The notes below the pieces were generated by a model that was not told the origin of the DNA, ran no database searches, and saw only the letters and a list, made by a program, of their open reading frames with translations. A stretch of 51,807 bases of DNA from the NCBI GenBank assembly GCA_020355105.1, contig CP070658.1, positions 1,790,688 to 1,842,494 on the forward strand, in the 5' to 3' direction. A program made the position numbers and the translations under genes. The DNA is from Candidatus Thorarchaeota archaeon (GTDB lineage: Archaea; Asgardarchaeota; Thorarchaeia; Thorarchaeales; Thorarchaeaceae). Within the stretch, counting starts at the first letter, position 1; every line of letters begins with the position of its first letter. Below are positions 14,682 to 42,440 of the stretch, piece after piece.

Positions 14682-16570
14682 GCATCCTCCTGCTTGATTG
14701 CTCCTTGAGGACAAACGTCTGTGCAGGTTCCACAGAGATTACACAGGGTTTCTTCAATCACAGCCTTCTCAGTTTCAGATTCAAGATACATGGCAGGACA
14801 AGACAGTCGATTCAGGCACCGTTTGCATGCATTGCACAGTTCGGAGTCCACATAGTACTTCGGCGGGTATTCTCCCGTCCTGCGTCGTTCGGCTGCCGTT
14901 AGAAGGGCACAGGGTGCCACCGACACCATTACTGCTGGGGCCTGATTCTCTCGTACCCAAGTTACCATCTCTCGGACATCAGCTACTAACTTTGCCATCG
15001 GGCCGAATGGATCTACGGACTTCACGTATTCCACGCCAAGTCCCTTGCAAGCCTCTGCTATGTCCAGAGGAGGCACCTCTTCCCGCATTCCTGTGACCCC
15101 TGTTCCAGGGTGGGGCTGATGGCCAGTCATTGCAGTGGTTCGATTGTCAAGTACAACTAAACTGATTGGATGTCTATTATACACTGCATTGGCTATCCCA
15201 GGAAGTCCGGATGCGAAGAAGGTGCTATCACCTATCGTAGCCACGACATCCTGGTCTGTTACGCGAGCTATGCCACATGCGGTGGTAATCGATGAACCCA
15301 TGTCAAATAGGATATCGGCCGTTTCCAGAGGAGGTGCAATGCTCAGAGTGTAGCAACCTATATCTGAGGGGTATATTGCCTTGCCACGCGTGGCTGATCT
15401 GATGGCATAGTAAGTGGCTCTGTGGGGACAACCTGCACAGAGTAGCGGAGGTCTTGGGGGTAGTTCTGGAAGCTCCTTCACCTTCTTGTCTATGGCCGTC
15501 CAGTTGATACTCGTACTACGACCAGTCACTTTCGACAGAGCTTCAATTACAATGCGCGGACTGTATTCGTAAGTACGTGTAAAGTATCCTTGTTCCTTTC
15601 CCAGAACCTCGACGTCAATCTCCTTCAATTGAGCAATGCGTCGCGCATGTGTTTCTAGGAAGGGCTCGAGCTCTTCAACTACAATGGTCTTCTTGTGACG
15701 TTTCAGGAAATTGGCGATTGTCTTCTCAGGTACCGGATGTGTCATGCCAAGTTTCAGAACCTCTGCGTCCAGTTCCAGTGTAGTGAGAGCTTCAAGCACA
15801 TAGTTGTATGACACACCGCTCGTGATGATTCCAAGTTCTCCCTTGCCATGAAGGAAGTTCAAAGACGTTAACTCGGATATCTTCGCAGCTTTCTTCATTA
15901 GCTCCAGAAGTATCGGATGTCGCTTCTTTGCTACTGCAGGAACTGGTACAAACCGATACGGCTCCTTCTCGAACTCGACTGTGTCCGGTCTTTCTCTGAT
16001 TCTTCCAAAGTCGACCGGAGCTCTAGTATGATTCACGCGTGTGGTAGTCCTGAGAAGTACAGGTAGTTCGAGCTTCTCTGAGATTTCGTAGGCCTCCAGT
16101 AGGATTGACTTAGCCTCAGCTGGGTCAGCCGGTTCAACCATTGGCATGTTTCCCATTAGAGCATAGTATCTACTGTCATTCTCATTCTGAGAGCTCCACA
16201 TGCTTGGATCATCAGCAACCACTATTACCATACCAGCACGTACGCCAGTGTATGCAAGTGAAAAGAACGGGTCGGCAGCGACGTTCAGACCTGGTCCCTT
16301 GCAGACCATCATGGATCTCACACCTGCCACAGCGGCGGCTCCTGCTACTTCAAGTGCCACCTTCTCGTTAGCACTGAACTCGAAATAGAAGTTGGGGATG
16401 TGAGGTGCCATGAAGGTGAGATTGTTACCTATCTCACTACTTGGAGTACCAGGATATAATGCAACGAGCCGAACTCCGGCCTCAAGGACTCCCCGTGCAA
16501 TAGCCTCATTTGCCAAGAGTAGAACTCTCTTACCGATGGTGTCTTCTAGCAATTCCTCAGCCTTTGTCAA
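14678..16570 (-). CDS. iorA: Indolepyruvate:ferredoxin oxidoreductase alpha subunit
   Basis: Contains LLANEAIARGVLEAGV, the TPP-binding region GDSTFF.SG, and a C-terminal 2x[4Fe-4S] pattern (C..C..C...CP twice). The start is placed at TTG 16570, which follows GGAGG by 9 nt. The ORF track extends to a GTG at 16687. Confidence 0.9.
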   Translation of the reverse strand: MTKAEELLEDTIGKRVLLLANEAIARGVLEAGVRLVALYPGTPSSEIGNNLTFMAPHIPNFYFEFSANEKVALEVAGAAAVAGVRSMMVCKGPGLNVAADPFFSLAYTGVRAGMVIVVADDPSMWSSQNENDSRYYALMGNMPMVEPADPAEAKSILLEAYEISEKLELPVLLRTTTRVNHTRAPVDFGRIRERPDTVEFEKEPYRFVPVPAVAKKRHPILLELMKKAAKISELTSLNFLHGKGELGIITSGVSYNYVLEALTTLELDAEVLKLGMTHPVPEKTIANFLKRHKKTIVVEELEPFLETHARRIAQLKEIDVEVLGKEQGYFTRTYEYSPRIVIEALSKVTGRSTSINWTAIDKKVKELPELPPRPPLLCAGCPHRATYYAIRSATRGKAIYPSDIGCYTLSIAPPLETADILFDMGSSITTACGIARVTDQDVVATIGDSTFFASGLPGIANAVYNRHPISLVVLDNRTTAMTGHQPHPGTGVTGMREEVPPLDIAEACKGLGVEYVKSVDPFGPMAKLVADVREMVTWVRENQAPAVMVSVAPCALLTAAERRRTGEYPPKYYVDSELCNACKRCLNRLSCPAMYLESETEKAVIEETLCNLCGTCTDVCPQGAIKQEDA

Positions 16571-16693
16571 GTATCTAGCCTCCGATCTCTCCAAGACATG
16601 TAGGACAAATCGACCGAAGAGAGTATCGTGTATCAACCTTGTGGTATTGGAAAACGTAGTGATTCTGATTATAGACCAATGAAACACAAATTC

Positions 16694-16702
16694 TGTATTA
16701 CA
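16694..16702. repeat. TGTAWTACA palindrome copy 7
   Basis: Lies upstream of iorA, 32 nt from the first origin-flanking palindrome. Confidence 0.6.
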
Positions 16703-16733
16703 ATTATTACCACACGCGGATGCCTTTACTATA

Positions 16734-16749
16734 GAACACGTGTTCTAAT
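16734..16749. repeat. GAACACGTGTTCTAAT (first 12 nt are a perfect palindrome), copy 1
   Basis: Exact 16-mer, identical to 16960-16975. Confidence 0.9.
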
Positions 16750-16785
16750 CATGCCCCAGTCATACTCAGATATTATGGGACAACA

Positions 16786-16806
16786 CCCCTTCATTTCCAC
16801 TGGAAC
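16786..16806 (-). promoter_or_regulatory. Origin recognition box (ORB) a
   Basis: The reverse complement reads GTTCCAGTGGAAATGAAGGGG, giving the dyad TCCAGTGGA, GGAAA and a G-string. Confidence 0.8.
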
Positions 16807-16925
16807 TGATCTATGGTGTTTTCACGGCGGGTACTACCAATACCATAAAAAATGGAGATAAACCACAGCTTACGAAACAGCTATTTATACTTTCCGACAT
16901 CGAAACGTATCGCCAATCAAATGAA
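16807..16925. other. A/T-rich spacer between the inverted ORBs (candidate duplex unwinding element)
   Basis: Contains ATAAAAAATGGAGATAAA and CTATTTATACTTT, plus three GAAAC half-site-like pentamers. Confidence 0.55.
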
Positions 16926-16946
16926 TTTCTACTGGAAACGAAGGGG
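16926..16946 (+). promoter_or_regulatory. Origin recognition box (ORB) b
   Basis: Reads TTTCTACTGGAAACGAAGGGG. It matches ORB a at 17 of 21 positions and is inverted relative to it. Confidence 0.75.
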
Positions 16947-16959
16947 TTATGTTGTTTTG

Positions 16960-16975
16960 GAACACGTGTTCTAAT
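16960..16975. repeat. GAACACGTGTTCTAAT, copy 2
   Basis: Exact 16-mer repeat of 16734-16749. Confidence 0.9.
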
Positions 16976-17393
16976 ACTCCGGTAATTCGCCCAGGACTTC
17001 GTAGACGCGGAGAACCAGAATGTCTGTGTAGGAGAAGAAGAGCTGATCGAACAACGACTTGAAGGTACTGGGCACAAGAATCGCTGAATCCGCTACTGCC
17101 TCAGCCCCCTCGCACTGATCAATAAGTCCTGGCTTCTTCTTTTGGCGAATTCCACTCTTTGTCTTCCAAGAGTACACATACCCGTGAAGCTCTTTCGTGA
17201 AACAAACTCTCCGAGCATTAGTCTGGCGCGCACGCTTGCAGTCATAGATGTAGAGGAAACTCGGTGCCAACTCAATCGACCATAGTTGGAACACATGTTC
17301 TGATTCTTTAGACTGAGTAATACCTGAATAAAGGATGGAAAGGTTAAAGCGTACGAAGAATTCCACACGGCGTGCCTCGAAGCATCGATTCAC
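16971..17393 (-). CDS. Hypothetical protein adjacent to the origin (weak call, start uncertain)
   Basis: The ORF track gives 16971..17483, but that overlaps the 17415 (+) gene. An in-frame GTG lies at 17393. I recognise no motif. Confidence 0.3.
   Translation of the reverse strand: MNRCFEARRVEFFVRFNLSILYSGITQSKESEHVFQLWSIELAPSFLYIYDCKRARQTNARRVCFTKELHGYVYSWKTKSGIRQKKKPGLIDQCEGAEAVADSAILVPSTFKSLFDQLFFSYTDILVLRVYEVLGELPEY
17289..17300. repeat. GAACACATGTTC, one-mismatch third copy of the palindrome
   Basis: Read directly. It lies 115 nt upstream of the LKR start codon. Confidence 0.6.
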
Positions 17394-17414
17394 AAACGAG
17401 GCGGGAGAGATCGC

Positions 17415-18716
17415 ATGAACACCATCGGTCTGCGCAGAGAAGAGAAACCCTTCGAAACGAGAGTGCCTGTTGTACCTGATCACCTAAGGAAACTCTCCGA
17501 AACACATCAGATTCGATTTGTGGTCGAACCAAGTGACCAACGAGCGTTTGGTCCAGAGGAGTTCACCAAAGTCGGAGCTGAAATGAAATCGTTGAAGGGC
17601 AACAACATCCCGGTGATTCTTGGCATTAAGGAGATGCCTGTCGATTTCTTCGAGAAAGACATAGTCTATGTGTTCTTCAGTCACACAATCAAGGGCCAGA
17701 AGTACAACATGCCGATGCTTAAGAGAATCCTCGATGTAGGTGCTACACTAATAGACTACGAGCGGGTCATTGATGAAAAGGGTAGAAGACTGATCTTCTT
17801 TGGAAACTGGGCGGGGATGGCTGGAGTATCTAATACCCTTAGAGTCCTAGGAGAGCGGCTAGAGTCCAAGGGTGTCAAACCAAATCCTTTCGCAGGGATG
17901 AAACACACGCTACAGTGTAGAAGCCTTGCCGAGTTAAAACAGGAATTTCAAGCTCTAGGGAGTCGAATATCCGAACAAGGACTACCGAATCACCTAGTCC
18001 CCTTTGTCGTTGGTTTTGCGGGATATGGCAACGTTTCACGTGGTGCACAGGAGATGTTTGATCTCCTTCCGCATGTACAGATTGAGCCCGAGGGGATTCC
18101 CGATATCTCAGAGCCGAAAGACAATGTCCTCTACAAGTGTGTCTTCAAGGAGGAACATATGGTCGAACCCAAGGATTCCGCGGCAGATTTCGATCTTCAG
18201 GACTACTACAAGACCGGGTCGACCAAATATAGAGGAGTCTTTGAGAAGTACGTTCCTCATCTAGCAGTGATTCTCAACTGCATCTACTGGTCACACAAAT
18301 ACCCTCGACTTGTTACCAAGAAGTTCATTAAGAAGCATTGGCTCGCCGACAATCGAAGACTCCAGGTAGTTGGTGACATCTCGTGTGATGTGGAGGGGGC
18401 TATCCAGTTTACAGTTCGAACGACCACCCCTGGAGATCCGGCCTTTACCTACATCGTTCACCAAGATAGTGCAGAACTAGGGGTCAAAGGTGATGGCCCA
18501 GTCGTAATGGCTGTTGACAATCTCCCATGTGAATTGCCACGCGAATCATCTACCTCCTTTAGCGAAACGCTTTTGGACTACATACCTGCGCTAGCGAAAG
18601 CAGACTTCACAGTACCGTTCCAACAACTCAATCTTCCCAAAGAGCTGAAGGACGCTGTAATTGTCTACCAGGGAGAACTCACGGAGAAGTACACGTACCT
18701 CAAGGAATACTTGTGA
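17415..18716 (+). CDS. Lysine-ketoglutarate reductase (saccharopine dehydrogenase, L-lysine-forming), homologous to the N-terminal half of eukaryotic AASS
   Basis: Several blocks closely parallel human AASS: VFFSHTIKGQKYNMPMLKRIL, LIDYERV.D..G.R..FFGNWAGMAG, GYGNVSRGAQ, GDISCDVEGAIQF, AVDNLPCELP. Confidence 0.8.
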   Translation: MNTIGLRREEKPFETRVPVVPDHLRKLSETHQIRFVVEPSDQRAFGPEEFTKVGAEMKSLKGNNIPVILGIKEMPVDFFEKDIVYVFFSHTIKGQKYNMPMLKRILDVGATLIDYERVIDEKGRRLIFFGNWAGMAGVSNTLRVLGERLESKGVKPNPFAGMKHTLQCRSLAELKQEFQALGSRISEQGLPNHLVPFVVGFAGYGNVSRGAQEMFDLLPHVQIEPEGIPDISEPKDNVLYKCVFKEEHMVEPKDSAADFDLQDYYKTGSTKYRGVFEKYVPHLAVILNCIYWSHKYPRLVTKKFIKKHWLADNRRLQVVGDISCDVEGAIQFTVRTTTPGDPAFTYIVHQDSAELGVKGDGPVVMAVDNLPCELPRESSTSFSETLLDYIPALAKADFTVPFQQLNLPKELKDAVIVYQGELTEKYTYLKEYL

Positions 18717-18726
18717 CGGAGCGAGA

Positions 18727-20049
18727 ATGACAATGAAGAAAGTGCTTTGTTTGGGTGCAGGCTTAGTTGCCCGTCCCTATGTCCATTACCTCAGTGACCG
18801 CGGTTTTCATGTAAAGGTTGCAAGCAGAACCAAGAGTAAAGCAGACCGCCTTGTCGAAGGCTGCAAGAACACTGAAACTGTGACCTTCAACATAAAGACC
18901 GATGATGACCTTCTTGACAAGCTGATTGCAGAAGCTGACCTAGCATGTTCCCTTCTTCCATACACCTTCCATGTGAAAGCAGCAAAGATTGCGATTGAAC
19001 ACGCAACTCCTTTCTGCACGACATCGTACATCTCACCAGAGATGAAGGAACTAGACAAGGCGGCCAGATCTGCCGGAATTCCAATTCTCAACGAATGTGG
19101 CGTTGACCCTGGGATAGATCACATGAGTGCTATGAAGATTATAGATCATGTTCACAATCACGATGGGAAGATTAGGAGTTTCACATCCTTCACTGGAGGT
19201 CTCCCTGCTCCCGAAGCCAATGACAATCCCTTTGGATACAAACTCTCTTGGAGTCCTAGAGGAGTCCTGTTGGCAGGTCGTAATGACGCTCATTTCCTCC
19301 GTGACGGGAAAGAAGTCAAGATTCCAGGAGCTGAACTCTTTGACAATTACAAGATAATGGAAGTTCCTGGAATAGGCAAGTTTGAGGGTTATCCTAATCG
19401 TGACAGCATGTCATTCATCGATACATATGGAATCCCGGAAACAGAAACCATGTTGAGAGGGACTTTCAGAAATCTTGGCTGGTGTGGCACACTCAAGAAA
19501 ATCGCCGACCTTGGTCTTCTATCTCTTGACGAACAGAGTTTTGACGGAATGACTTTCGCTGATATGATGTACAATCTAGTCAATGACAAAGAAGCAGCCC
19601 TTCGTGAAGCGGTTTCGGGCAAAATCGGACTCAAGAGCGACGACCCAGTGATTTCACGACTTGAGTGGCTTGGACTCTTCAGTAACCAGCAGATTCCAGA
19701 TGGCATTAACACACATCTGGATGCCCTCTGCAATCTGTTCGAACAGAAGCTGCAATACGCTCCTAGTGAGAGGGACATGATAGTGATGCATCACGAGTTC
19801 ATAGCTGAATACCCGGACAGGAAGGAGAAGATTACATCCACAATGATTGACTTTGGTATACCGAATGGCGACAGTTCAATGTCTAGAACCGTTGCACTGC
19901 CGGTAGCCATAGCAAGCAGAATGATTCTTGATGGATCTATGAATCTTGTCGGAGTTCACCGACCAGTGATGCCAGACGTGTATGAGCCGATTCTCAATGA
20001 GCTCGAGAATCTAGATATCAAGCTGGAGGACCGTGTAACGCCACTCTGA
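18727..20049 (+). CDS. Saccharopine dehydrogenase (L-glutamate-forming), homologous to the C-terminal half of AASS
   Basis: Start at MTMKKVLCLGAGLVARP (Rossmann GxGxxA). Also contains SLLPY, TSYISPEMKELD, GVDPGIDHM, GGLPAPE.NDNPFGYK.SWSPRGVL, EGYPNRDS and RDMIVM. Confidence 0.85.
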   Translation: MTMKKVLCLGAGLVARPYVHYLSDRGFHVKVASRTKSKADRLVEGCKNTETVTFNIKTDDDLLDKLIAEADLACSLLPYTFHVKAAKIAIEHATPFCTTSYISPEMKELDKAARSAGIPILNECGVDPGIDHMSAMKIIDHVHNHDGKIRSFTSFTGGLPAPEANDNPFGYKLSWSPRGVLLAGRNDAHFLRDGKEVKIPGAELFDNYKIMEVPGIGKFEGYPNRDSMSFIDTYGIPETETMLRGTFRNLGWCGTLKKIADLGLLSLDEQSFDGMTFADMMYNLVNDKEAALREAVSGKIGLKSDDPVISRLEWLGLFSNQQIPDGINTHLDALCNLFEQKLQYAPSERDMIVMHHEFIAEYPDRKEKITSTMIDFGIPNGDSSMSRTVALPVAIASRMILDGSMNLVGVHRPVMPDVYEPILNELENLDIKLEDRVTPL

Positions 20050-20088
20050 TTTGATATACCAGACTGCTACATACGAGGTGTACTGAGC

Positions 20089-20745
20089 CTACTTACCCAC
20101 ATGCAATTGAATGGAAGCAAGAATCTCTTCTGCTCGTTCAGCTTCCTTCTGGACATCCGGAACTTCTGTCTTGAGCCGATATGTGTACCCCGAGCGATTC
20201 CCGTATCTCTCGAGATGTCCCTTTCCATCATTCCACATTCGAGCTAGGTAGGTGGAAGCAGTGCTTTTAGGCAAATCATCATTGAATGTAGCTTGATAGA
20301 TTTCAGCAACATCCAAGGATGAGAACTTGCCATGCTTGAAAGAGGCATAGATCACTATGTGCATCTTCTCGTAGCTACTCATAGACTCGTAGCTAATCTC
20401 CTCAATCTCAGTATCCACGACTTCTTCGCGGTCTGGTGCAAATGAATACCCTGTACTAGTTTCCAAGAAGACTTTGAACTTCTCAAACATCTCCTCAATG
20501 CTGCCACCCTCCACTTGGAAACTAGACTCTTCTCTCTTTGACTCGTCACGCACCACGATTCTGAAATCAAATGGCTCCTCAGTGAGTGCAAGGATCCTCC
20601 GAAACCTAGTCAATGCCTCGTCAGGTTTGACATACTTGCACTGAAAGACTTCTCTTAACCCGGGACCGGAGTTATACGTGAACTCGTACAGATACCCCGT
20701 TCTATCTTCGGCTTTCAAAGTCTTCACCTTGACTACATCTGACAT
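20089..20745 (-). CDS. Hypothetical protein with a C-terminal winged-helix-like domain
   Basis: Start placed at the ATG of MSDVVKVKT. The ORF track's TTG-initiated 57-aa extension seems unlikely. The C-terminal FSSLDVAEIYQ...STASTYLARMW.DGKGHLERYG..SGYTYRL fits a wHTH pattern. Confidence 0.5.
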   Translation of the reverse strand: MSDVVKVKTLKAEDRTGYLYEFTYNSGPGLREVFQCKYVKPDEALTRFRRILALTEEPFDFRIVVRDESKREESSFQVEGGSIEEMFEKFKVFLETSTGYSFAPDREEVVDTEIEEISYESMSSYEKMHIVIYASFKHGKFSSLDVAEIYQATFNDDLPKSTASTYLARMWNDGKGHLERYGNRSGYTYRLKTEVPDVQKEAERAEEILASIQLHVGK

Positions 20746-21042
20746 CCATTCAGACTTTTGTATAAGACTGTGTTCACAACAGCCTACCAGATTTCGGCAA
20801 ATAAGTGTGAGTATGTGAATTACCAATACCAAGATAACAGCTACATAATGCGTCTGTGGGCATTCAGAACACGTCCTACATGGGAAGAGTGTGCTGGCAG
20901 CTTGTAAGCGCCCCAAACTCGAAAAAAAGGTTTATGAACGCCCAGAATCGAAAAAAGGGACCATTGTCCATTTCTTCTGCTATTCACTAGACTATGTAGT
21001 TTGTGAACAATCCAAAGGGTATTTCATATCTCTTGTTATCCC

Positions 21043-21063
21043 GTTCCACTGGAAACCAAGGGG
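21043..21063 (+). promoter_or_regulatory. ORB-like element c (isolated)
   Basis: Reads GTTCCACTGGAAACCAAGGGG and matches ORB a at 18 of 21 positions. Confidence 0.65.
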
Positions 21064-21225
21064 TAGCTTCATTCACATCATAATAGACCTTTATGAGCCC
21101 TTCTTAGACTGCATACGGTGATATGGGGTCTTTTCTGTAGGGACTGTTCACAGAAAGGGCGCCATTCACAGAGAAGGACTGTGAAATGTTGTAAATACCG
21201 TGAATCTGTTGACTAGATTTTAGGG

Positions 21226-22236
21226 TCAGATGACTGGTACAAGGTAGTCCAAGTAGTCCTCTCCAAGCACGAGTTGGTAGAAGCTTTCTTTCTTGGCAAC
21301 GTTGCATACTAATTCTAAGCGTCCTCTCGCCTCAACCCACGCATTCCTATGAACATGCTCAGTGAAACGGCCGCGATAGCTAACGAGTCTAGACAGGTCT
21401 GGCAGCTCTTCACACTGAACATGATACGTACATGGAGTGAATATCGAAGCAGAATTGTCAGTCACCACGCACTTCACCACCCGGGTGCCTTCACACTCGA
21501 ATGTGAGATCATCGTAGCCGTATCCTATCTCATCTGGTAGCTTGACTGCTCTGATAAAGAAGTCAATTGAATCATACAACCCCTGCAGGACTTTCTTAGC
21601 TTCTATCTCCTCTAACACGGATCTCCATCTACTATGTGCTTTCCATCTGAAGTCCAGATGTTTCTCAAGACTTTCACCATGGTATCGTTCGATTCCAGGG
21701 AGAGAGCCATCTCTCAGTACAGAATGAACTCTCCTTGCTGGACGCGATCCATAGACAACAAGGTCAATGTCCGATTGAGAGGTACCGAGTCCAACAAGCT
21801 GAGAACCAGTGAGCCCAATCTCTGACCACTCTATGTCTGCATTGTCAACTATGGTCTGAGCAAGAGACCGGGATGCTTCTTCAAGAGCCGTCAAGTGCAG
21901 TCCTAAGTCACGAAGCTGGCGCAGTCCCTCAATAGGACTTAGCACATAGGATATACAATCATTCGGAACAGCCTGGAGAACTCGTCCACGTTTCTCATCA
22001 TTCCAGAGATACTGCGGGTGCTTCTCACGAAGGTACTTCTCACGTTTGTCAAGATCGTATATTTTCGAGAATCGTGATCCATCTCTTGATTGGCGGTTTC
22101 CACTTTCATCTGGAATGTATCTTAGGTAGGCAATCAGCCGGTCCACCGGTTGAATGACCCCTTTCACTTCAAATACAAGGCCTTCACTGGTCACAACGAA
22201 GTATCCCTCAACAGGTTGGGAAGTCAGGGAGTTCAC
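21226..22236 (-). CDS. Pol-beta-superfamily nucleotidyltransferase with a C-terminal OB-like domain (COG1665-like)
   Basis: Contains the GLTGSQLVGLGTSQSDIDLVVYG motif (G-S...D-x-D). The C-terminal beta-rich region resembles the TiaS-type OB fold. Confidence 0.55.
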   Translation of the reverse strand: MNSLTSQPVEGYFVVTSEGLVFEVKGVIQPVDRLIAYLRYIPDESGNRQSRDGSRFSKIYDLDKREKYLREKHPQYLWNDEKRGRVLQAVPNDCISYVLSPIEGLRQLRDLGLHLTALEEASRSLAQTIVDNADIEWSEIGLTGSQLVGLGTSQSDIDLVVYGSRPARRVHSVLRDGSLPGIERYHGESLEKHLDFRWKAHSRWRSVLEEIEAKKVLQGLYDSIDFFIRAVKLPDEIGYGYDDLTFECEGTRVVKCVVTDNSASIFTPCTYHVQCEELPDLSRLVSYRGRFTEHVHRNAWVEARGRLELVCNVAKKESFYQLVLGEDYLDYLVPVI

Positions 22237-33016: not shown

Positions 33017-33027
33017 AGAAATGAATC

Positions 33028-33138
33028 TGGTGCTCCGGCCGGGATTCGAACCCGGGTCGGGGGATCGAGAGTCCCCCATGCTGGGCCGGACTACACACGG
33101 CTACATCACGAGAATCTTCACGACGTATCTACCGGAGC
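33028..33138 (-). tRNA. tRNA, read as tRNA-Glu(CUC), with a ~33-nt insertion near positions 9/10 (putative non-canonical intron); CCA encoded
   Basis: Revcomp gives acceptor GCTCCGG/CCGGAGC, T-arm CCGGG-TTCGAAT-CCCGG, anticodon arm GGGGA-CTCTCGA-TCCCC and D-arm GTGT-AGTCCGGCCCA-GCAT. An extra GATACGTCGTGAAGATTCTCGTGATGTAGCCGT lies between the acceptor and the D-stem. Confidence 0.6.
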
Positions 33139-33242
33139 TAACGGGAACCAGTCCGGAGCGGGAGTGCTCCCTCAAGACCGCAAATAAGGCTTTCCCAAAG
33201 ACGGCCTCTCTGGGGCAGTTTACTGGTCATAATCGAATGGCA

Positions 33243-33443
33243 CTATGGAAAAAGACTGGTGAAACTACTCCAACTGTCCTCCAGCAGCTGCAGAAGACTT
33301 CCTATGATGTCTTGTGCCCACCCAGTAGCCTGAAGGATAACTGCGATGACTATCGATACAGTGACCACTGCGAGACCCAAGAGGAGACTCTCCTCCACCA
33401 AAGGGCCACCTGACTCATCTGCGATGAGGTCTCTCTCGTTCAT
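33243..33443 (-). CDS. Small pilin-like / VirB2- or Flp-like hydrophobic protein candidate
   Basis: 66 aa with a charged leader, then GG-PLVEE and a ~22-residue hydrophobic helix. A Glu sits at about +5 of a possible G|G cleavage site. The gene lies directly downstream of the secretion ATPase. Confidence 0.4.
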   Translation of the reverse strand: MNERDLIADESGGPLVEESLLLGLAVVTVSIVIAVILQATGWAQDIIGSLLQLLEDSWSSFTSLFP

Positions 33444-41243: not shown

Positions 41244-42440
41244 GTGACTCATGACTACATTGAAGATGAACTGAGTCGGCAAAGTGTATTCAAGTCTGAA
41301 CAGCTACTCTCCATAGACTATGTGCCCGAAAAGCTTCCGCATCGGGAATCGGAGCTGAAGGTCCTTGCGCAGAGCTTCAAGACACTCATTACATCTCCTG
41401 GCCGTACGAGTCAGAAGTTCATAATCGAGGGGCCCGTTGGGACCGGTAAGACTGCTGTCACTAAGCGCTTTGCAGACCAGATGATTCAAGCTGCTGAGCG
41501 GCGTGGCATAAGACTACATAAGCTCCACATCAATTGCCGTGTGAGTAAGAGCGCATACCTGGTCTACTTGAGAATACTCAAGGAGTTCAAGCCAAAGTTT
41601 CCTCGTCGAGGACACTCACCAGAAGAACTTCTTCAGATGGTCGTCGAAGTCTTGGACGAAGAAGACCGCTATCTTCTATTAATGCTGGATGAACTTGACT
41701 ACTTCATCCGTCAGCGGGGGGCCGACATACTCTATGATCTCACTAGACTCATGGACGACAGATTGAACGCCCCACAGCGTCTCTCAATAATTGGCATTGG
41801 ACGAAAGGTCTCTCTGAGCGAAGACATACTGGATTCAAGCACACTTAGCACACTTCAGCGCAACATACTTCGTTTCGAGCAGTACAGTTCCGAAGCACTC
41901 TATGACATTCTCAAAGAAAGGTCAGACATGGCATTTGAAGAGAACACGGTTATGGATGAAACACTCCAGCTGATTTGCGATATCGCTTCAGATCGAGGAG
42001 ACGCTCGTTACGCAATTGAACTTCTATGGAGAGCAGGAAAACAAGCTGACAGTATAAACTCCAGAAAGGTGATTCCAGACTACGCAAGAAAGGCCAAAGC
42101 TGACACTCATCCAGAGTTGAGAAAGGAGATATTCACCACCCTGCCGAAACAGAATAGCCTTCTTCTTCTAGCGGCCGCGCGCCAATTGAAGGAGAATCGA
42201 GGAGCCTACATCACAATGGGTGAACTGGAGGAGATGTACCAATCTGTATGCGAGGAGTACAATGAGGAACCACGAGCTCACACTCAGGTCTGGGAGTGGG
42301 TTCAGGACTTGAATTCTCATGGATTGGTTGACACAAAACGTTCAGGCGTCGGGCAGAGAGGCCAAACAACACTCATAGGGCTGTCCGATGTACCTGCGGA
42401 ATTGTTGGAGCACTACCTACTGGAGTTGCTCGGGAGATAG
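41244..42440 (+). CDS. orc1: Orc1/Cdc6 replication initiator
   Basis: Contains L..DYVPEKLPHRE.E, Walker A GPVGTGKTA, Walker B LLMLDELD, a sensor region with GDARYAIELL, and a C-terminal winged helix. Confidence 0.95.
   Translation: MTHDYIEDELSRQSVFKSEQLLSIDYVPEKLPHRESELKVLAQSFKTLITSPGRTSQKFIIEGPVGTGKTAVTKRFADQMIQAAERRGIRLHKLHINCRVSKSAYLVYLRILKEFKPKFPRRGHSPEELLQMVVEVLDEEDRYLLLMLDELDYFIRQRGADILYDLTRLMDDRLNAPQRLSIIGIGRKVSLSEDILDSSTLSTLQRNILRFEQYSSEALYDILKERSDMAFEENTVMDETLQLICDIASDRGDARYAIELLWRAGKQADSINSRKVIPDYARKAKADTHPELRKEIFTTLPKQNSLLLLAAARQLKENRGAYITMGELEEMYQSVCEEYNEEPRAHTQVWEWVQDLNSHGLVDTKRSGVGQRGQTTLIGLSDVPAELLEHYLLELLGR

Follow-up and report, generated by a model that had tools for sequence, protein, structure and literature searches.

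We analyzed a 51,807-nt stretch of the genome of a "Candidatus Thorarchaeota" archaeon (contig CP070658.1, positions 1,790,688 to 1,842,494 of the forward strand), referred to here as the window, which contains a predicted chromosomal replication origin (oriC). A first-pass annotation had called an origin here from the sequence without database searches, describing two inverted origin recognition boxes (ORBs) that lie 119 bp apart and have outward-pointing G-strings. Reading the sequence directly, we found exactly this pair. We also found a third ORB and palindromes (PAL) flanking the pair, which that inventory had overlooked. The left neighbors of the pair are iorA and iorB, and to its right, beyond a small gene that we call hyp99, lies an AlaDH/LKR-like gene. 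The elements of the origin region are the following.

16733-16746: PAL1, palindrome AGAACACGTGTTCT, 39 nt outside the ORB(-) G-string and ~46 nt upstream of the start of the iorA open reading frame (ORF)
16785-16806, minus strand: ORB(-), a full ORB whose reverse complement is GTTCCAGTGGAAATGAAGGGGT; G-string leftward (outward)
16807-16925: inter-ORB spacer, 119 bp, A/T-rich, candidate DNA unwinding element (DUE)
16926-16947, plus strand: ORB(+), a full ORB, TTTCTACTGGAAACGAAGGGGT; G-string rightward (outward)
16959-16972: PAL2, GGAACACGTGTTCT, 12 nt outside the ORB(+) G-string, overlapping the hyp99 stop codon
21043-21064, plus strand: ORB3, GTTCCACTGGAAACCAAGGGGT; G-string pointing away from a winged-helix gene (hyp219)

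ORB(-) and ORB(+) are mutually inverted, with their G-strings at the outer ends. As is characteristic of an ORB-type oriC, all three boxes consist of a TCCAnnGGAAA dyad, a short spacer, and a G-string, and the inverted pair surrounds an A/T-rich element with the G-strings facing outward. Using a degenerate pattern with at most 3 mismatches, we found only these three sites in the 51.8 kb, with 0.38 expected. The spacer between the paired boxes holds ATAAAAAATGGAGATAAA and CTATTTATACTTT and is 61% A+T; the window as a whole is 52%. Ranked against all of the window, the best 90 bp of the spacer fall in the top 0.24% for A+T content and in the top 0.4% for predicted duplex instability.

We compared these boxes with published ORBs. 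The archaeal ORB consensus in a published table is CTTCCAGTGGAAACGAAAGGGGT (PMC4153887), and all three boxes fit it. The euryarchaeal consensus given for Haloferax is GTTCCAGTGGAAAC-AAA----GGGGG (PMC1868953). ORB(-) is identical at 22 of 22 positions to an ORB of "Ca. Methanomassiliicoccus intestinalis," GTTCCAGTGGAAATGA-AGGGGT (PMC4153887). In that species the sequence occurs as ORB3 and ORB4, which, like the Thorarchaeota pair, are distant from any orc1 gene; unlike those single boxes, the Thorarchaeota locus is a complete ORB-DUE-ORB unit with conserved geometry.

The closest functional parallel is the minimal Haloarcula hispanica oriC1 (oriC1m). Its function was abolished by deleting either ORB or by mutating either terminal G-string (CCCCCC in site I, GGGGGGGG in site II), and a G-rich inverted repeat was described as lying inside both ORBs; the G-string is recognized by the AAA+ domain (PMC3936714). 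If site I is the left ORB and site II the right one, as we assume, the oriC1m G-strings point outward. Like oriC1m, the Thorarchaeota locus has an inverted ORB pair with outward G-strings around an A/T-rich region. The ORB-DUE-ORB layout proposed in the first-pass annotation therefore stands, in both the A/T-rich spacer and a polarity like that of the dissected Haloarcula origin. The locus also resembles the oriC1-type origins more broadly (Sulfolobus oriC1, Pyrococcus oriC, and haloarchaeal oriC1) in its dyad-plus-G-string ORBs and its extra ORB nearby. Unlike those origins, it has no Orc1-1 gene in the 16 kb on its left or the 35 kb on its right. Its third ORB, in the next large intergenic region, is 4.1 kb from the pair with four genes between, and a conserved 12- to 14-nt palindrome, GAACAYRTGTTC, lies outside each ORB of the pair, an arrangement for which we found no description at other origins.

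We found that this arrangement is conserved across the Thorarchaeota. Using the LKR-like protein as the query, we collected 48 loci from Thorarchaeota (Asgard) metagenome-assembled genomes (MAGs), with 57 to 92% identity; an exact copy of the protein itself was not on record. Nearly all of the loci shared one gene order: HypF, iorB, iorA, the ORB pair, a small gene, LKR, saccharopine dehydrogenase (SDH), a 209- to 218-aa gene, ORB3, nucleotidyltransferase, and aminotransferase. The inverted pair occupied the syntenic place in 44 loci and the window (~45 species), and ORB3 did so in 43 loci and the window; the PAL copies went along with the pair. The four loci with no pair miss that stretch. 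Three of these start at or just upstream of LKR, and the fourth, L031, has a 100-N scaffold gap (1595-1694) exactly at the ORB-pair site, for which reason we rejected it as a pair-less genome.

In an alignment of the 45 sequences, PAL and ORB columns were 80 to 100% conserved (90 to 100% for PAL1), versus mostly 30 to 50% in the surrounding intergenic DNA. The inter-ORB distance was 117 to 128 bp (median, 123) in all 45 loci, and in every one the spacer was A/T-richer than its own locus. Within the spacer, the conserved blocks were AAAAAATGGAGATAAA at 16845-16862 and TTATTTATA(Y)TTT at 16883-16895. The minus strand at 16883-16890 contains an element resembling a B recognition element and TATA box (BRE/TATA), GGAAAG-TATAAATA, whose consensus is AAAAAA-TATAAATA. 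The predicted direction of transcription from this element is through ORB(-) toward iorA.

In the Thorarchaeota sequence examined, ORBs were confined to this locus. At 2 or fewer mismatches, the window contained no other ORB, and none appeared in ~560 kb of Thorarchaeota loci or in the 125 kb surrounding six orc1 genes of Thorarchaeota. The first-pass annotation had held that its call would fail if the consensus were scattered over many non-origin sites; in ~740 kb of Thorarchaeota sequence, no nonsyntenic ORB appeared at that threshold. For scanning whole genomes, the search pattern is GTTCCASTGGAAAYNAAGGGGT.

We then looked at ORBs outside the Thorarchaeota. A metagenome scan found ORBs on more than 120 contigs of 24 to 64% GC, and thus the box is pan-archaeal. 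Members of the winged-helix family to which hyp219 belongs were encoded on 11 of 120 ORB contigs, ~70 to 420 bp from the ORB and usually with TGTGAAY boxes at the gene start; in three of these, an orc1 gene lay on the other side of the ORB. Control loci of ~430 kb gave one weak match to the family. The family occurs beside ORBs, often beside an Orc1-1 gene, in archaea of 33 to 52% GC (L134, L144, L159, L207, L210, and L213). We also sampled in reverse, taking four family members and inspecting their loci. P0368 sits between ORB-like repeats, and orc1 and PolD-DP1 lie directly downstream of it; three ORBs are found upstream of P0376; P0367, on a 2.5-kb contig, has no ORB; and P0365 is in locus L210, of 33% GC.

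L210 carries a homologous module next to an initiator gene. Its order is DP1, orc1 (minus strand), a perfect ORB with eight TGTGAAT boxes, the winged-helix gene, a hyp99 homologue, the ORB-pair core, iorA, and iorB. The core consists of GAACATATGTTC, 21 nt, ORB(-), 134 bp at 86% A+T, ORB(+), 11 nt, and GAACATATGTTC. The hyp99 homologue, between the winged-helix gene and the ORB pair, is 43% identical (E value, 8e-28), and the third ORB lies between the winged-helix gene and the Orc1-1 gene. Compared with the Thorarchaeota locus, L210 lacks LKR-SDH, its pair and third ORB are separated by 1.2 kb instead of 4.1 kb, and orc1 adjoins the module. Like oriC1-type origins, the L210 module adjoins an Orc1-1 gene and PolD DP1. 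Because the module is shared with L210, the Thorarchaeota locus is homologous to a canonical initiator-adjacent oriC. With L210, a single outgroup, taken as ancestral, the distance of the Thorarchaeota origin from orc1 would be a derived rearrangement.

In other uncultured archaea, we observed inverted ORB pairs with outward G-strings spaced 162 to 169 bp start to start (L133, 4778-4961; L087, L090, L106, L116, and L117). The L133 pair is between ferredoxin and beta-CASP nuclease genes, with no orc1 within 2.6 to 4.7 kb. Pairs of this type suggest that origins away from orc1 may be commoner than assumed.

The only Orc1-family gene in the window, as the first-pass annotation had noted, is on the plus strand at 41244-42440. 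That annotation proposed binding assays of the ORBs with its product, as if it were the cognate initiator; our analysis points instead to a different class. On NCBIfam models, the protein scored 374 bits with NF001623 (cutoff, 311) versus 226 bits with NF001625 (cutoff, 501). Against the PDB, it matched Pyrobaculum aerophilum Cdc6 (1FNN) at 195 bits, Sso Orc1-1 at 157 bits, and Ape ORC1 at 126 bits, and it is 31% identical to the L210 Orc1. Initiator Orc1 proteins contact the ORB through two winged-helix arginine pairs, which the non-initiator Orc1-2 lacks (PMC9738581). At the aligned ORB-contact positions, Aeropyrum pernix ORC1 has RR and RgR and the L210 Orc1 has RR and KgR; the 41244 protein has TQ and VgQ, like 1FNN. 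Thus, of the features that mark the initiator class, it has neither a match to NF001625 above the cutoff nor the four ORB-contacting arginines. The L210 Orc1 is of the initiator class, with 379 bits to Sso Orc1-1, 374 bits to A. pernix ORC1, and 550 bits to NF001625. For the Orc1 proteins of L134, L159, and L207, NF001625 was the best model, below its 501-bit cutoff.

The genomic setting of 41244 agrees with this. The gene is in an island of replication genes reaching to 51104, with an ArsR-type helix-turn-helix gene, TruA, RFC-L, RFC-S, a 185-aa ORF, MCM, and a Hel308-like helicase, and the island is conserved in six Thorarchaeota genomes. The 185-aa ORF had no Pfam match; its position resembles that of Gins23 in the Sulfolobus island. 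The Sulfolobus solfataricus cdc6-2 locus holds RFC-s, RFC-l, Cdc6-2, Gins23, and MCM, and the P. aerophilum cdc6 gene neighbors RFC (PMC2643942); like these, 41244 lies beside RFC genes (and MCM). The Orc1-2/Cdc6-2 class is non-initiator in Sulfolobus and is described as never origin-linked (PMC5333045). We conclude that 41244 quite likely encodes an Orc1-2/Cdc6-2-class paralogue, judging from its sequence and synteny, and that this protein is probably not the cognate initiator. An electrophoretic mobility shift assay or chromatin immunoprecipitation with it would therefore probably probe the wrong paralogue. We also considered an initiator-class assignment for 41244, in view of Sso Orc1-1 outscoring Ape ORC2, and rejected it on the basis of the L210 Orc1, the NCBIfam models, the arginine positions, and the island synteny.

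Unlike Sulfolobus cdc6-2, which is described as not origin-associated, the Thorarchaeota island is 23 to 44 kb from the ORB locus in the window and in four other genomes. The pair and a 41244-type orc1 were on one contig in all four of these. We measured the following distances from the ORB pair to orc1.

Window: 24.4 kb
L003/L082: 24.5 kb
L033/L085: 22.9 kb
L038/L086: 23.8 kb
L030/L084: 43.5 kb, with the island inverted

At least eight further pairs of homologues are on contigs of matching length. This linkage is a conserved neighborhood and is no evidence that the 41244 Orc1 serves the origin.

We also examined compositional asymmetry. Raw GC skew tracks gene orientation in the window, and we therefore used third codon positions read on the plus strand. 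Genes of both orientations at 17 to 45 kb were C-rich at these positions (about -0.11), and genes left of 16.7 kb averaged about +0.02; a fit in which the skew switches at 16.85 kb gave a t of -4.6. Over 40 Thorarchaeota genomes, which are related and have left flanks of only 6 to 16 kb, the mean third-codon skew was +0.04 on the left and -0.13 on the right, with opposite signs in 34 of 40 and a lower right side in 39 of 40. Right-flank genes on both strands had the same sign of skew. Four-fold degenerate sites showed a strong coding-strand preference for C, and the strand-independent remainder was +0.03 to +0.08 on the left and -0.07 to -0.13 on the right. The polarity at the pair corresponds to a C-rich leading strand, the reverse of the bacterial rule; haloarchaea with mapped origins have the same polarity (PMC1868953). 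The skew change is suggestive, supporting an origin without proving one. In L084, whose island has the opposite orientation with respect to the ORB locus, the skew of most island genes is shifted in the positive direction. The intergenic region at 45.7 to 46.0 kb, a local minimum of raw cumulative GC skew, contained no ORB-like repeats.

Taken together, these data make it highly probable that 16733-16972 is the core of the Thorarchaeota chromosomal oriC. The origin call of the first-pass annotation is well supported by the consensus match, geometry, polarity, conservation in ~45 species, confinement of the ORBs, and homology to L210. As predicted from the sequence, two Orc1-1-class initiator monomers would bind the inverted ORBs, with their winged-helix domains on the TCCAnnGGAAA dyads facing inward and their AAA+ domains on the outward G-strings. 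Once bound, Orc1-1 would deform the DNA and bring MCM to the 119-bp A/T-rich spacer; the spacer would then melt, allowing the origin to fire. ORB3 would be an ancestral component of this region, serving either as a further Orc1 site with an auxiliary or regulatory role or as the module's operator end. The origin module is composite and its conservation extends beyond the Thorarchaeota; it comprises PAL-ORB-DUE-ORB-PAL, hyp99, the winged-helix gene, TGTGAAY boxes with an ORB, and orc1-1. In Thorarchaeota, relative to L210, the LKR-SDH pair lies inside the module and orc1-1 has lost its adjacency. What makes this origin a variant is the lost adjacency to the initiator gene, the bracketing palindromes, and the two small conserved genes between the pair and ORB3. 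In the literature searched, we found no earlier ORB-based Asgard origin, and the one proposal (for Odinarchaeum) rests on a skew minimum only.

Beyond the ORBs, the locus holds the following features.

16971-17270, minus strand: hyp99, a conserved gene of ~96 to 99 aa with a TTG start, part of the origin module
17288-17301: PAL3, GGAACACATGTTCT, 18 nt before hyp99 starts, within the divergent promoter region common to hyp99 and the LKR-like gene
17415-20049, plus strand: AlaDH/LKR-like and saccharopine dehydrogenase genes, metabolic cargo that separates hyp99 from the winged-helix gene and is lacking in the L210 module
20089-20745, minus strand: hyp219, encoding a 218-aa protein with a C-terminal winged helix-turn-helix
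20773-21206: nine conserved RTTCAC(A)/TGTGAAY boxes, clustered to either side of ORB3

The 14-nt palindrome GGAACACGTGTTCT occurs at 16733, 16959, and 17288, and the first two copies are the bounds of the feature drawn in the first-pass annotation. The L210 equivalent, GAACATATGTTC, flanks the L210 ORB pair (5851 and 6069) and is 11 nt outside its ORB(+). In 740 kb of nonsyntenic loci, PAL-like palindromes were found only on Thorarchaeota contigs, in L210, and on one further contig with a winged-helix gene and an ORB. One such place, in five Thorarchaeota genomes (L082-L086, ~20.8 to 21.0 kb), precedes a histone-deacetylase-family gene located ~10.8 kb downstream of orc1. PAL may be the operator of a transcription factor that has a role at the origin as well. 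We kept neither a purely origin-specific element nor a plain transcription factor operator as its explanation, since two lineages have PAL close to the origin and it also occurs at one promoter that is unrelated.

Two small proteins are encoded between the pair and ORB3. The first-pass annotation correctly named iorAB and LKR as neighbors, but what it called a weak hypothetical ORF is a real conserved gene, which we corrected from a 170-aa ORF to the ~99-aa hyp99. We found 160 hyp99 homologues, and every source-named match among those listed carried a Thorarchaeota or other Asgard label. The protein had no significant Pfam, NCBIfam, or PDB sequence match, and its AlphaFold2 model, with a predicted local distance difference test (pLDDT) score of 45, was too low in confidence to interpret. 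In one Thorarchaeota MAG (L016, 4150-5502), PAL2 and hyp99 are separated by an inserted cysteine-rich gene of 451 aa.

We corrected hyp219 from a 275-aa ORF to 218 aa, with 72 to 83% identity across Thorarchaeota matches. Its C-terminal half has winged-helix secondary structure, and its N-terminal domain has so far been found only in Thorarchaeota-like proteins. The hyp219 protein also lacked significant Pfam, NCBIfam, or PDB sequence matches and has no dedicated Pfam or NCBIfam family; its AlphaFold2 model was too poor (pLDDT, 55), and Foldseek returned nothing from the PDB at an E value of 0.001 or lower. In a profile search, the hyp219 domain was common to ~100 clusters of ~140-aa proteins, some of which match BlaI/Penicillinase_R or HTH_45 winged-helix models. 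To named families, this ~140-aa core gave only weak BlaI/Penicillinase_R-type winged-helix matches, in comparisons that did not include WhiP or Cdt1. Like Sulfolobus oriC3 with WhiP and the haloarchaeal oapABC, the locus has a non-Orc1 gene persistently beside an origin. The haloarchaeal origin-associated genes differ, oapA to oapC encoding a GTPase, a DUF2073 protein, and a Zn-ribbon protein, and we rejected kinship with them as unrelated. The hyp219 family may be a previously unrecognized origin-associated factor.

Upstream of the winged-helix gene, we counted 9 RTTCAC(A)/TGTGAAY boxes versus 1.3 expected, and a 27-nt block, CAAATAAGTGTGAGTATGTGAATTACC at 20798-20824, had columns ~90 to 100% conserved in 44 sequences. 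The same type of box lies beside the winged-helix gene in L092, L097, L124, L134, L159, and L210. The boxes may be an operator or iterons of the winged-helix protein. Searching Rfam with the window and with 16500-21400 returned only tRNA matches. One was a weak match to RF00005 at 33039-33096 (minus strand; 30.8 bits versus a cutoff of 29), inside an ORF at 33021-33413, where ARAGORN was silent.

Several points weigh against an active origin at the pair. Archaea can carry dormant origins, so conservation of the ORBs does not prove an origin in use. Neither the window nor the Thorarchaeota loci examined held an Orc1-1-class gene, and thus the initiator adjacency seen at other archaeal origins is missing here, although such adjacency is typical rather than strictly defining. 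We infer an Orc1-1-type ORB binder in Thorarchaeota solely because the ORBs are under strong purifying selection. In the skew analysis, the best-fit switch point was flat over 9 to 17.6 kb, and there was a second change near 45.8 kb, beyond which the signal fades. The left-flank skew is weak, and gene-specific codon effects and the shared ancestry of the 40 genomes could contribute to the skew pattern; under classical polarity (a G-rich leading strand), the same pattern would mark a terminus. An alternative is that the ORBs are operators of an Orc1-family protein for the flanking genes (iorAB, hyp99, and the winged-helix gene) or belong to a dormant or relict origin, with replication normally starting elsewhere. 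Each ORB is in a promoter-bearing intergenic region, the spacer holds the conserved BRE/TATA-like element, and the PAL upstream of the histone-deacetylase-family gene in five genomes resembles a transcription factor operator. Isolated ORBs away from orc1 have been reported in Methanomassiliicoccales (PMC4153887), dormant origins and orc1 genes lacking autonomously replicating sequence activity are on record for haloarchaea (PMC4595724 and PMC1868953), and Orc1-2, a non-initiator, is a transcription regulator in Sulfolobales (PMC9738581). Nevertheless, we consider this explanation unlikely. A spacer that stays within 11 bp in length and is consistently A/T-rich in 45 species has the geometry of an unwinding element and not of an operator; the homologous L210 module abuts orc1-1 and DP1, as do mapped euryarchaeal origins; and a strand-independent skew change coincides with the pair. 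Moreover, the two roles are compatible, since origin ORBs commonly overlap promoters.

We considered two further explanations. The inverted repeats have 26-nt arms that are 81% complementary and are flanked by a perfect 16-nt direct repeat, GAACACGTGTTCTAAT, as might be expected of a miniature transposable element or of the scar left when an extrachromosomal replicon was captured, and capture of extrachromosomal elements has been proposed as a source of archaeal origins. Yet the pair holds one syntenic position in ~45 species, with a spacer that diverged in step with the genome. Each genome has a single syntenic copy, and no further copies were found in ~1.4 Mb examined; having found no dispersed copies, we rejected the transposable-element interpretation. 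The direct repeats are palindromic in their own right and are conserved in another lineage, where their core differs (GAACATATGTTC), and the genes between the ORBs are metabolic or lineage-conserved and not plasmid or viral, as judged without a PHROGs scan. Such an element or scar is therefore the least probable of the explanations considered here. Scarcely more probable is a structured non-coding RNA, although the very high conservation of the DNA (columns of ~90 to 100% at 20798-20824 and up to 90 to 100% in the ORBs) might be expected of one. The region from 16500 to 21400 had no Rfam match at the gathering threshold or at E values up to 5, and the conserved units, which are short and found in either orientation, fit the known consensus of a DNA-binding site. 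Without Rfam support, we rejected this interpretation as well.

The reading that we prefer remains an ORB-type oriC. A more speculative extension of it, which we put forward tentatively and think could well be wrong, is a composite protein-coding module older than the Thorarchaeota. Under such a scheme, the hyp219 family would be a widespread origin factor with TGTGAAY iterons around an ORB, hyp99 or another factor would bind GAACAYRTGTTC, and both would regulate or assist Orc1-1. The origin would have been uncoupled from its initiator gene and yet lie 23 to 44 kb from the Cdc6-2/RFC/MCM island.

If the core assignment is right, the locus provides a precise, conserved, and experimentally addressable oriC for the Thorarchaeia. 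It also corrects a misassignment, in that the Orc1 encoded nearby is probably a non-initiator paralogue. PAL, the TGTGAAY boxes, and the two small conserved proteins become candidate regulators of initiation. These data suggest that these relatives of eukaryotes would still be using a sequence-defined, ORB-type origin.

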